From positions 95,391 through 159,390 of the forward strand of contig JBMYRH010000009.1 of assembly GCA_049602155.1 (NCBI GenBank): a DNA stretch of 64,000 nt, given 5' to 3'. Positions 33,984 to 37,538 of this stretch are shown here, piece after piece; position 1 is the first letter of the stretch; each line of letters opens with the position of its first letter. The DNA comes from Myxococcota bacterium. Lineage in GTDB: Bacteria > Myxococcota_A > UBA9042 > PHBI01 > JBMYRH01. The position numbers and the translations under genes were made by a program. The notes beneath the pieces are model-generated. The model was not told the DNA's origin, did no database searches, and saw only the letters and a list, made by a program, of their open reading frames with translations.

Positions 33984-36900
33984 TTAGAGGGTCGCCTGTC
34001 GTCGTCGCACCGCCCAGCCGAGCATCAATGCGAAGAGCACCGACCACAGTGGCAGTCCTTGAGACTGGCTGGTACCGCAGCCGCCGTCATCCTCGCCAGG
34101 AGGGTGCACGGTCACGACCGAGGTGTCCGCCTCGGGGGCCACGTCGACGTCTTCACCGCCGCCGCTCGTGTCGGCCTCTTCCGTGGGCTCGGGCTCGGGC
34201 TCGGGCTCGGGCTCGGGGGCGACCACCTCGCCACTCCACGTTTTGTAGGGCGTCGGCGAGGTCTCGTAATTGCCTGTGTTGTGGGGGTCGTGGTTGAAGC
34301 CATTCCACTCGAAGAGGCTCTGTCCGGCCTTTCCCTTGGTCTTCCATGCGTAGAGCCAGCCGTCTCGGGTCATCACGGTGACATCGAAATTGCCGTCACC
34401 GTCAAAGTCACCCACACCCGCGGAGGCGATGATCCAGCCGCCTGTCTGCTTAGGCCACCCCTCTGGCTCCTCTCCCAGGTAGTTCCAGGCGCGGACCAAG
34501 TACCCGCCAGACCCGATGATGACCTCGGGCTTATTGTCGTTGTTGATGTCGACGATGGTCGGGGTGTTGAAGAACTGCCAGTCGTCGTGGACGCGGGGGA
34601 AGCCCTCCATCATCTTGCCGGTGTCGGTGTCCCATCCGCTCATGTGGTGGTCGAAGGGCTTGCGCTCGCCGCCCCCTGCGAAGGCGATCGCGAAGTCAAA
34701 GCCCGCGGTCCCCTTCACGAGGTCGATGCCCCCTTTGCCGTCGATGTTCCCCATCGCGCCGTGGTTATGGAGGATGTAGGCTGGGCTGTCTTGGGAGTCG
34801 GACAGGGGGCCATAGTCCTTGTTGTCCATCTTGCGGTACTGGGTGCCGTCGTGGTTGAGCAGGACGCCCGGTGACGAGATGGTATCGAAGCTGAGCTCCA
34901 AGGTGCCGTCGTAGTCCAGGTCCGCCATGATCGGGTTGGAGACGACCCCGCGCCCGACGATGGGGAGAGTCTCGACGGTCAGGCCGTAGAGGGAGGCGGG
35001 CCACCCGTCTACGATCTCACCAGTCTCGCTCTCCAAGAGGTAGGCCAAGGTCTCGTTTGCGTTACCTGCGGCCCCAAAGGTCTCGCTCGTGCCGACCGCG
35101 ATCTCGGGCTTCCCGTCGCCATCGGCGTCTCCCACGGCGACAGACGCGATGATGCGCGCCCCTTGCTCGGGATCGCTGCCTACCTTGATTGGGTAGGGCG
35201 CAAATCGTGATCCGTCGGCCTGCCAGACGTAGAGGTTCTGATCCATCGCAGGGGCCAGGACCTCGAGGTCTCCATCACCGTCGAGGTCGTAGAGGGTCGG
35301 GGCGGCGAAGAAGCCGAATTCGATCAGGTTCTGCTTCGTCGGCGGCGGCTGATCGAAGTCGACCGACTGGGGCCACCCGGTCCGCATGCTCCCATCGTGC
35401 TCGTAGACGTAGACCCAGCCGTCCCAGGTGCTCAACACGATCTCAAGGGTCCCATCACCGTCCAAGTCACCGACCGCGGGCGCCATCATCAGCGTGTGGC
35501 GCGCGACGTCTGGCTCCAAGGTCATCAGCTCGGCGACGCACCCTGTCTTGTCGTCGCGGTAAGCGCAGGCGTTGCGCACGTTCAGGGTGTTGTCCGGGTC
35601 CACTGTCCAGCGGACGTTCAACGCGACCGGGAAGCCCGCCACCTCTGTGCCATCGTACTTGTAGGCGTGAAGGTATCCGTCAGCGAGCGCGGTCACGATG
35701 TCCTCTGCGCCGTCGCCATCGAGGTCGGCGAAGGTCGGCGAGGACTCTCCGGAGGTCCCGAGGTAGAGGGGGAACCCGTCGTGGAGGTCTGGATCGCGCT
35801 CGATCAAGAACCCTTTGCGCATCTCACCGACGATGGGGTCACCGTTCGCGAGGGTCGCGGTGGCGCGCAGCCGGAGGGTGACTGCGTTCTGGTGGGGATC
35901 GGCGAGCTTGGCGTCTAGGTCCAAGTCGATGGTCGTCAGGTCCCAGGTCGCCAAGACGCCCTCAAGCCCCTCAGTGGTCCCCGTGGTGATCGTGACGAAT
36001 TCGGAGTCCTTCGGCGCGACGCCGAGCGCATACTCCATCACCCAGTTCACGCTCTCATAGCGCGCAGGGCGGCCGTCCGTTCGGAGGTTGATGCGGCCCG
36101 TGATGTCGATGGTCGGGGTCTTGTCTGGGTAGAGGACCTCGAACCAGAGCGGCTCTAGGATGTCGACCTCGGGCGGGATCTCCCCCGTCATGACCGCGTC
36201 CACTGTGCTGCGGGCGTTGTTTCGTCCGTAACCAAAGTGCCAGTCCCACCCTTCATCGCTGATGAACTTGGTCGGATCTAAGCCGCCGGGGTTCGCGTTG
36301 ATGTCATCGGCGGTCATCGTCATCAGCTGCTTGATCTCCTCAGCGCTCAGCGGGGGATCGAGCTCTGCTTTCAGCCCAGCCGAGTAGATCAGGCCGGCAT
36401 GGCCTGCGGTGATGCCAGTGGCCTCTGATGAGCAGCCCGTGCCTGGGGTCGAGAGCAGGAGCTGCATGCCGAAGTTCGTGCAGTTGTTGAAGTTCAGAAA
36501 TGTTGTGGACTGATCGGCGCTGACCGCGTCGTAGACGATGGCGTGCACGTAGACCGTGTGGTTGTTCGTCCCGGGCATGTTGTGGTGGTAGCTCAGCTCA
36601 TCGGCGGCCGAGGCGATCACCACCACGTTGTTCATGTACGCGTAGTTGATGGCTTGTTGGCCCAAGGGGGTGTTGTTGACCGAGCCGAGCGCCTCTTGGA
36701 TCACGTGCGCGCCGGAGTCCACGGCGAAGATCACCGAATGCGCGAACTCATTGGCGTCTGCGATGAAGCTGTCGGCAGCGCGGAGCATGAGTGCGGTGCA
36801 ATCAGGGCAGACTCCAATGTCTCCCATGCCGTTGTTGCCCTCTGCGACCGACCAGCGGGCCTCACCATTACCGTGACCGAAGCGGTTGTCGTCGTAGGCG

Positions 36901-37538
36901 TCGTTGTCGTCAGCGAAGAAGTCCCAGCCCGAGATGTCGTCGACGTAGCCGTTGCCGTCATCATCGACGCCATCTGAGCAGTGGATGATCAAGTCTTGGG
37001 GGTCGAGCATGCCGTTGTCGTTCTTGTCCCAATTGGCGAGCTCAACCTCCTCTCCACGGGCGGCGTAGTAGTCCCGGATGTCGAGCCAGCCTGAGCCGTC
37101 CACGTCGAAGATGTCCGCACCTGGCGTCGCCTCATCACCCCAGTCGGGCAGGCAGTTCTGAAGCTCGCCGCGGTTCAAGTAGTACTTGTTGACCAGGTCT
37201 TTGTTGTCCCAGTAGACGCCCGAGTCGAGCACCGCCACGATCACGCGGCGATCGCCGGTGGTGACCTGCCAGGCTCTGTCGGCATGCAAGCCGGCCCCCA
37301 TGGCGACCTCTTCTTGGCGGAACCCCTCGGTGGCAGTCCAGTCTGCGCGTGTCCACTCAGGGCAGGCCTCGTCCATATGAGCCCCAGGTACAAAGGACCA
37401 CAGGTTCCACTGGCCGCTGTAGCCCGGGTCGTTGGGCATCGCTAGGCAGGGGTTCTCATCCGGACCATTGGTCCACGCTGCGGCGCTGGATGCACCGATG
37501 AGCAGGTTTAAGGCAAGGATCCACGAAATGCGTCGCAC
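33984..37538 (-). CDS. Subtilisin-like (S8) serine protease with FG-GAP/integrin-like repeats and MYXO-CTERM-type C-terminal sorting tail.
   Basis: GTG 37538 with GGAGG 7 nt upstream. Signal peptide MRRISWILALNLLIGASSAAAW. Subtilase motifs: VIVAVLDSGV (Asp), FGHGNGEA (His), GTGCSSEATGITAGHAG (Ser). Many DLDGDG/DADGDG/DFDGDG calcium-type repeats and a (PE)n linker PEPEPEPEPEPTEE. The tail is GGCGTSQSQGLPLWSVLFALMLGWAVRRRQATL (Cys, hydrophobic helix, basic end). Confidence 0.85.
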   Translation of the reverse strand: MRRISWILALNLLIGASSAAAWTNGPDENPCLAMPNDPGYSGQWNLWSFVPGAHMDEACPEWTRADWTATEGFRQEEVAMGAGLHADRAWQVTTGDRRVIVAVLDSGVYWDNKDLVNKYYLNRGELQNCLPDWGDEATPGADIFDVDGSGWLDIRDYYAARGEEVELANWDKNDNGMLDPQDLIIHCSDGVDDDGNGYVDDISGWDFFADDNDAYDDNRFGHGNGEARWSVAEGNNGMGDIGVCPDCTALMLRAADSFIADANEFAHSVIFAVDSGAHVIQEALGSVNNTPLGQQAINYAYMNNVVVIASAADELSYHHNMPGTNNHTVYVHAIVYDAVSADQSTTFLNFNNCTNFGMQLLLSTPGTGCSSEATGITAGHAGLIYSAGLKAELDPPLSAEEIKQLMTMTADDINANPGGLDPTKFISDEGWDWHFGYGRNNARSTVDAVMTGEIPPEVDILEPLWFEVLYPDKTPTIDITGRINLRTDGRPARYESVNWVMEYALGVAPKDSEFVTITTGTTEGLEGVLATWDLTTIDLDLDAKLADPHQNAVTLRLRATATLANGDPIVGEMRKGFLIERDPDLHDGFPLYLGTSGESSPTFADLDGDGAEDIVTALADGYLHAYKYDGTEVAGFPVALNVRWTVDPDNTLNVRNACAYRDDKTGCVAELMTLEPDVARHTLMMAPAVGDLDGDGTLEIVLSTWDGWVYVYEHDGSMRTGWPQSVDFDQPPPTKQNLIEFGFFAAPTLYDLDGDGDLEVLAPAMDQNLYVWQADGSRFAPYPIKVGSDPEQGARIIASVAVGDADGDGKPEIAVGTSETFGAAGNANETLAYLLESETGEIVDGWPASLYGLTVETLPIVGRGVVSNPIMADLDYDGTLELSFDTISSPGVLLNHDGTQYRKMDNKDYGPLSDSQDSPAYILHNHGAMGNIDGKGGIDLVKGTAGFDFAIAFAGGGERKPFDHHMSGWDTDTGKMMEGFPRVHDDWQFFNTPTIVDINNDNKPEVIIGSGGYLVRAWNYLGEEPEGWPKQTGGWIIASAGVGDFDGDGNFDVTVMTRDGWLYAWKTKGKAGQSLFEWNGFNHDPHNTGNYETSPTPYKTWSGEVVAPEPEPEPEPEPTEEADTSGGGEDVDVAPEADTSVVTVHPPGEDDGGCGTSQSQGLPLWSVLFALMLGWAVRRRQATL

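Follow-up and report, generated by a model that had tools for sequence, protein, structure and literature searches.

A Myxococcota S8 protease with an eight-bladed FG-GAP propeller as a probable passenger of the MYXO-CTERM sorting system

We analysed a 64-kb stretch (the window, 64,000 nucleotides) of contig JBMYRH010000009.1 from a Myxococcota bacterium, in which one gene encodes a protein of 1184 residues that joins an S8 (subtilase) protease domain to a large repeat region and ends in a cysteine, a hydrophobic segment and a basic cluster. This ending raises the question of whether the protease is sorted to the cell surface by the MYXO-CTERM/myxosortase route described in Myxococcus xanthus. 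We consider it likely that it is, and that the gene encodes an active S8 protease followed by a beta-sandwich, an eight-bladed propeller and a linker of about 60 residues that leads to the sorting tag.

The C-terminal tail and its conservation in the family

The C-terminus of the S8 protein, GGCGTSQSQGLPLWSVLFALMLGWAVRRRQATL, is present as quoted in an earlier note on this DNA, which had read it as a Cys/hydrophobic/basic tail like that of MYXO-CTERM proteins. An AlphaFold2 model, built from a 90-sequence alignment of the family, places a terminal helix at residues 1164-1183. When the last 34-49 residues were scored in isolation, they reached 21.7-23.1 bits with the MYXO-CTERM model TIGR03382, over its cutoff of 15.85. 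These scores depend on the cysteine, since its replacement by alanine in silico lowered TIGR03382 from 22.2 to 15.8 bits and TIGR03901.2, the second MYXO-CTERM model, from 19.0 to 11.0 bits, a loss of 6-8 bits. As controls, nine other 42-residue C-termini of the window, including one with a hydrophobic-helix end and the transmembrane/basic end of a CFI-box protein, gave no MYXO-CTERM match even at E <= 10. The S8 protein is the only tagged protein in the window.

The MYXO-CTERM hidden Markov model is 34 residues long, short and divergent, and membership needs curatorial review (Haft, 10.1101/2023.06.07.544157); the tail was therefore examined at the level of the family. A homologue search of 5.8 billion proteins gave 2675 matches, and the counts of family tails rest on the best 120. 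These come from metagenome-assembled genomes (MAGs) of Myxococcota, are nearly all full-length (about 1150-1280 residues, with few truncated) and share 46-88% identity. The end of about 117 of the 120 consists of [D/G]-G-C and a short run of Gly/Ala/Ser/Thr, after which come a hydrophobic helix and RRR(R). The 90-sequence alignment has C1154 in every sequence and shows at least 90% conservation of G1153 and R1179. With the family tails scored one by one at E <= 0.01, TIGR03901.2 was matched by 85 of the 120 (best E 3e-9) and TIGR03382 by 42, followed by the sorting-signal models JDVT-CTERM (10 tails) and Synerg-CTERM (five). Because 85 of the 120 tails match TIGR03901.2, we regard the identity of the tag as settled at the family level, where, judged from sequence, it is MYXO-CTERM; the copy in the window is a slightly divergent instance with mixed model scores. 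The shared pattern, the invariant cysteine, the negative controls and the loss of score on Cys-to-Ala exchange all bear out the earlier reading of the tail.

That the tag is MYXO-CTERM in the family while some copies diverge from the model also explains the mixed naming of orthologues in the databases, where P0063, P0069 and P0074 are called MYXO-CTERM domain-containing protein and P0011 and P0037 just S8 family serine peptidase. NCBIfam families described as myxosortase-dependent exist for other hydrolases (an M36 metallopeptidase and a phytase-like protein); none of these covers the S8 protein at full length. On contigs of related MAGs, about 20 further open reading frames (ORFs) with the same kind of tail were picked up by a regular-expression screen only.

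A more distant clade of S8-propeller genes (loci L008-L032; 35-40% identity, many of them from lake metagenomes) showed MYXO-CTERM-like proteins clustered around the protease gene, again by regular expression only. At these loci the S8 gene is flanked by a divergent ORF of about 320-520 residues that ends in LVGC or CGT, a hydrophobic segment and RRRR (for example, L013 8251..9462, minus strand, and L009 3645..4658, minus strand). An ORF of about 540 residues that ends in C[GT]C, a hydrophobic segment and RRR often lies downstream (L013 18933..20558 and L009 14569..16173, both on the plus strand). This cluster is absent beside the S8 copy of the window.

Domain architecture of the protease

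The positions of all features are collected in Table 1. The predicted signal peptide is accompanied by a helix at residues 2-19 in the AlphaFold2 model, and the family consensus N-terminus begins MxRR and later reads WPNGPDEDP. The catalytic domain matches Pfam Peptidase_S8 (PF00082) over residues 97-438 with 60.1 bits, against a gathering cutoff of 21.8. The Asp, His and Ser of its triad, in this order, and the oxyanion Asn align to thermitase-type motifs, and all four (D105, H222, N320 and S370) are invariant in the 90 sequences, down to 48% identity. This conservation argues that the protein is probably catalytically competent.

An insertion specific to the family, which matched no Pfam family, separates the catalytic Asp from the His. 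It includes the common S8 motif DDDGNGYVDDISGWDF and two EF-hand/dockerin-like loops of 12 residues, D145-D156 (DVDGSGWLDIRD) and D171-D182 (DKNDNGMLDPQD); a short helix comes after each loop. Residues D145, D156, N175, D182, D192, D194, G197 and D200 of the insertion are invariant in the 90 sequences, and judging from their motifs the two loops may bind calcium. Compared with the S8A subtilases thermitase and deseasin MCP-01, the protein has an extra insertion of about 60 residues with two EF-hand-like loops and over 700 additional C-terminal residues that make up the beta-sandwich, the propeller and the tag. Unlike in those enzymes, no I9 propeptide was detected here with Pfam.

The next domain is all-beta in predicted secondary structure with a pLDDT (predicted local distance difference test) above 90 and without a Pfam family match. 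Foldseek alignments to furin and Kex2 run past the catalytic core (TMt about 0.53 over about 555 columns). The model as a whole has a mean pLDDT of 88.8 and a pTM (predicted template modelling score) of 0.88. At this protein size, such a pTM means that in the model the three folded domains keep fixed positions relative to one another, and the model thereby implies one rigid unit made up of S8 domain, beta-sandwich and propeller.

The propeller itself was matched by FG-GAP_3 (PF13517; 76.6 bits, cutoff 26.9, E 2.2e-21) and FG-GAP (PF01839; 59.1 bits, cutoff 22.1, E 3.5e-16). We counted six clear loops of the DxDxDG type (residues 605, 691, 751, 804, 873 and 1044) and two degenerate ones near residues 931 and 997, and each of the eight repeat units corresponds to a strand set in the model. 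The best propeller matches are all eight-bladed, namely Scone, Bagel8, YxaL, BamB and Bap1, with a Foldseek TMt of 0.78 for the designed propeller Scone. The repeats had been described in the earlier note as integrin-like, FG-GAP and calcium-binding. The repeat type, with its DxDxDG loops, holds; the integrin fold does not, because integrin alpha has seven blades and the eight repeats and the eight-bladed structural matches point to eight here. In contrast to the eight-bladed propellers of Vibrio cholerae Bap1/RbmC and of BamB/YxaL, the present one is fused to a protease and belongs to the FG-GAP/VCBS sequence family.

The propeller is joined to the tail by a disordered linker with 11 Pro, 11 Glu and six Asp in 58 residues, whose sequence is not conserved among relatives. 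The model has a pLDDT below 50 at residues 1115-1164. With the Pfam S8 match and the (PE)5 stretch of the linker, the earlier description of an S8 protease with a (PE)n linker stands.

Table 1. Positions of the S8-protease gene, its parts and two neighbouring genes within the window
Feature	Position	Strand	Residues	Remarks
S8-protease gene	33984..37538	-	1184 aa	S8, beta-sandwich, FG-GAP propeller, linker and MYXO-CTERM tail; stop included
Shine-Dalgarno-like GGAGG	37545..37549	-		6-nt spacer to GTG; read from sequence
Predicted Sec signal peptide	37476..37538	-	1-21	MRR, hydrophobic core, AAA then W; by inspection
S8 subtilase catalytic domain	36189..37436	-	~35-450	
Catalytic Asp	37224..37226	-	D105	
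Family-specific insertion	36939..37160	-	~127-200	between catalytic Asp and His; motif scan
Catalytic His	36873..36875	-	H222	
Oxyanion Asn	36579..36581	-	N320	
Nucleophile Ser	36429..36431	-	S370	within GCSSEATG
Beta-sandwich domain	35802..36167	-	~458-579	occupies P-domain position of kexin/furin-type subtilases
FG-GAP beta-propeller	34269..35771	-	~590-1090	all-beta in model; eight repeat units
Disordered Pro/Glu/Asp-rich linker	34083..34265	-	1092-1152	
(PE)5	34188..34217	-	1108-1117	
MYXO-CTERM-type tripartite tail	33987..34085	-	1152-1184	GGC, hydrophobic segment, RRR, QATL
C1154 of GGC motif	34077..34079	-	GGC, 1152-1154	30 residues ahead of C-terminal residue
Hydrophobic segment GLPLWSVLFALMLGWAV	34008..34058	-	1161-1177	uncharged
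RRR	33999..34007	-	1178-1180	QATL after
CFI-box-CTERM protein	41834..43057	+	407 aa	NF041770, 78.1 bits vs cutoff 40, residues 296-364
MXAN_2562-family outer-membrane beta-barrel	43057..43776	+		206 bits, cutoff 100

Sorting route and rival explanations

The tripartite tag, its cysteine requirement, the enzymes MrtX, MrtC and MrtP and the dependence on T2SS, the type II secretion system, have already been published (PMC11980579; 10.1101/2023.06.07.544157). MrtX is described as universally conserved across Myxococcota, its cleavage of MYXO-CTERM proteins is Cys-dependent, and the working model in M. xanthus places Sec, lipidation, MrtX and T2SS in that order, with partial shedding seen for TraA and MXAN_4924 (PMC11980579). 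By analogy, the S8 protein would be exported across the inner membrane by Sec through its N-terminal signal peptide, and its C-terminal helix would then transiently anchor it in that membrane with the RRR in the cytoplasm. C1154 would be lipidated, and a myxosortase of the CPBP family (MrtX, MrtC or MrtP type) would cleave just past this residue, so that the helix is lost. The T2SS would carry the folded protein to the surface, where the lipid would retain it and the linker may act as a flexible stalk; some shedding is possible. All steps after Sec export are carried over from M. xanthus TraA and MXAN_4924 (PMC11980579).

The M. xanthus proteins TraA, MXAN_4924 and MepA, which depend on MrtX and T2SS (PMC11980579), share with the S8 protein a signal peptide, a disordered region before the tag, a Gly-rich motif with an invariant Cys, a hydrophobic helix and a C-terminal Arg cluster. 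The host is likewise a member of the Myxococcota, and hydrolases are common as passengers. The tag differs from those of M. xanthus in having a single Cys (GGCG) where GCGC is frequent, in scoring just under the TIGR03901.2 cutoff and in being known here from sequence. V. cholerae VesB is likewise a serine protease held at the surface; its tripartite tag at the C-terminus is cut by an intramembrane protease before T2SS export (GlyGly-CTERM/rhombosortase; PMC11980579). However, VesB belongs to the trypsin-like family, carries a GlyGly-CTERM tag and relies on a rhomboid sorting enzyme.

Several points weigh against sorting of this protein by the MYXO-CTERM route, or against parts of the picture. 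With the full-length protein, both models fail (TIGR03382 9.0 bits, cutoff 15.85; TIGR03901.2 6.7 bits, cutoff 20), and the isolated tail reaches 17.9-19.0 bits with TIGR03901.2, 1-2 bits under its cutoff. The model check that the earlier note had proposed thus has a mixed outcome for this copy, whose isolated tail narrowly misses TIGR03901.2 and passes TIGR03382, and most of the family tails match TIGR03901.2. The hydrophobic segment has a proline, P1163, at its N-terminal edge, and MYXO-CTERM helices are described as free of Pro and charged residues (Haft, 10.1101/2023.06.07.544157). We screened the window and 42 related loci for CPBP proteins (at least four transmembrane segments plus EExxxR, FxxxH and HxxxN motifs). 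By this motif and transmembrane screen there is no CPBP protease or myxosortase in the 64 kb, nor is there a myxosortase in the flanks of the 42 loci; it yielded just antisense ORFs and unrelated transporter-like ORFs. NCBIfam likewise found no Mrt family among ten membrane or unknown proteins of the window. For the 35 MYXO-CTERM proteins of M. xanthus, the domain legend (Table S1) names no subtilase and no FG-GAP domain, so that, as far as this legend goes, the S8/beta-sandwich/eight-bladed FG-GAP passenger sets the present protein apart from the M. xanthus set; because that set appears to lack this architecture, the pathway is transferred from other passengers. Finally, the predicted signal peptide was called by eye rather than with a predictor, and a role of the propeller as a substrate- or matrix-binding module, like the prey or matrix binding that the earlier note thought possible, is a guess by analogy.

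One alternative is that the C-terminal helix is a plain, unprocessed anchor, as in type VII mycosins. The active protease would then stay at the inner membrane, facing the periplasm, and would be neither lipidated nor cleaved nor exported to the surface. We regard this as unlikely. The mycosin model TIGR03921 gives 62.2 bits, far under its cutoff of 278.75, and the host lies in the Myxococcota, not among actinobacteria or firmicutes with a type VII system. A plain anchor would also leave unexplained why Gly-Cys is invariant 7-12 residues ahead of the helix, in an otherwise unconserved region, why most family tails match TIGR03901.2 and why the scores of the tail depend by 6-8 bits on the Cys. 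The tail could instead belong to a different Cys-containing sorting system with its own Mrt-type enzyme, such as JDVT-CTERM, Synerg-CTERM or similar. The isolated tail does weakly match JDVT-CTERM (12.7-14.1 bits), in line with the few family tails that match this model or Synerg-CTERM, but these scores are under the JDVT-CTERM cutoff of 27, and the MYXO-CTERM models win with 85 and 42 of the 120 tails. In addition, both tags are described as occurring outside Myxococcota: JDVT-CTERM, with its near-invariant DP motif, in Pseudomonadota and never in Myxococcota, and Synerg-CTERM, named for Synergistetes, in a lineage outside Myxococcota (10.1101/2023.06.07.544157; PMC11980579). A sorting system of this other kind is thus extremely improbable. 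Membership in the mycosin, JDVT-CTERM, Synerg-CTERM and PEP-CTERM groups was rejected in each case, as all scores lie under cutoff.

A further rival concerns function: the protein might be mainly an adhesin or matrix-binding protein whose S8 domain does not cleave and serves as a scaffold (a pseudoprotease, as some Csp proteins of germination are). The invariance of all four catalytic residues down to 48% identity is the pattern of purifying selection on catalysis, and we therefore reject this reading, which is very unlikely. An active protease, sorted to the surface by the MYXO-CTERM/myxosortase route, remains our preferred reading. Beyond it, one could imagine a rigid S8-sandwich-propeller machine in which the propeller gates or selects substrates as in prolyl oligopeptidases, and which Myxococcota other than Myxococcus would use, across the lineage, as a dedicated protease for processing at the surface, perhaps for the maturation of further tagged proteins there; it would then not be a general protease for feeding or predation. 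The 46-88% identity across about 1180 residues and the single copy per locus are compatible with such a specific processing role, which we nevertheless consider unlikely.

Genomic setting and implications

The S8 gene starts with GTG and stops with TAA (33986..33984). Its GC content at third codon positions is 0.84, as in the real genes of the window (window GC 63%). Downstream, an RNA methyltransferase gene has its ATG 2 nt past the S8 stop (33979..33986, minus strand), and this short gap suggests that the two are co-transcribed in the source genome. The 64-nt overlap with ORF 32605..34047 is only apparent, since the ORF tool picks the earliest possible start. The pairing with the RNA methyltransferase is not kept in relatives, and synteny is limited to a divergent cysteine-synthase gene in the closest clade (about 70% identity); the neighbours of more distant S8 orthologues are unrelated genes. 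The S8 protease is a stand-alone gene without a conserved operon partner.

The reference set of 185,579 species did not include the source genome, and its best S8 loci are at 67-71% identity. Looked up in the databases by exact sequence, the S8 protein gave no match, whether its first residue was given as V or as M. The Logan assembly of run SRR27204701 contains the same locus and stops within the S8 gene, which may explain why these look-ups came back empty.

The earlier note had extended its reading of the tail to the product of 41834..43057, supposing that it uses related Cys-tag sorting. This protein instead belongs to the CFI-box-CTERM family (Table 1), the name that NCBI gives to an identical protein, and the CFI box is kept in 118 of its 120 relatives. 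The distance of the box, with its Cys, from the C-terminus is 111 residues (106-127, mostly 110-114, in orthologues of about 400 residues); transmembrane segments begin about 55 residues after the box, and the last 42 residues give no match to MYXO-CTERM models. The proposal of a related tag is therefore not supported. We found no paper that mentions the CFI-box-CTERM domain.

Residues 148-301 of the same protein resemble the MXAN_2561 family, which is named as MYXO-CTERM-anchored (86.9 bits, under the cutoff of 150). Its stop codon shares one base with the ATG of the MXAN_2562-family barrel gene. As the gene pair is conserved and the anchor type differs, the C-terminal modules would have an analogous role and not the same sorting signal, and these sequences suggest that lineages have swapped one anchor type for the other. 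Several relatives of 558-670 residues (P0151, P0156, P0157, P0159 and P0160) look like fusions of both members of the pair.

A Myxococcota origin, for which the earlier note had taken the tail as a taxonomic clue, is backed by this neighbourhood, since the CFI-box protein (P0121) has a 100% identical NCBI counterpart in a Myxococcota bacterium MAG and is accompanied in the window by the MXAN_2562-family barrel and by the weak, sub-threshold GltJ-like match of 56570..58339. As a whole, the earlier observation was confirmed for the S8 domain, the FG-GAP repeats, the PE linker, the tail and the Myxococcota host, and was corrected for the integrin fold and the tag at 41834..43057.

Three further ORFs on the minus strand were noted in the window. 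The 1252-residue product of 26405..30163 belongs to no NCBIfam family at full length, and its last 42 residues show a weak likeness to the copper site of amicyanin/pseudoazurin (E 0.002-0.004), a hint that this large, uncharacterised protein has a cupredoxin-like domain at its C-terminus. The product of 56570..58339 (589 residues) has a weak GltJ-like match (101.8 bits, far under the cutoff of 450) and an AgmX/PglI C-terminal domain near threshold (37.3 bits, cutoff 40), and may be a gliding-motility-type protein. The sole polytopic membrane ORF of the window, 30299..32812 (837 residues), is not a CPBP protease and weakly matches the archaeal flippase-associated Agl23 (36.9 bits, cutoff 126).

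In conclusion, the S8 domain with an eight-bladed FG-GAP propeller is a conserved architecture, as yet uncharacterised, that is probably a passenger of a sorting system already described, and we found no paper on the FG-GAP plus subtilisin architecture in Myxococcota. Since experiments in M. xanthus have already established this sorting system and its enzyme, the finding raises no new question about them. It does expose an annotation gap, in that the short MYXO-CTERM models drop under their cutoffs on long proteins, which is why close homologues are labelled simply as S8 family serine peptidases. The MYXO-CTERM tail is a usable taxonomic marker for the window. Overall, our analysis adds a passenger architecture to the set of proteins whose display by Myxococcota through the MYXO-CTERM/myxosortase route is probable.

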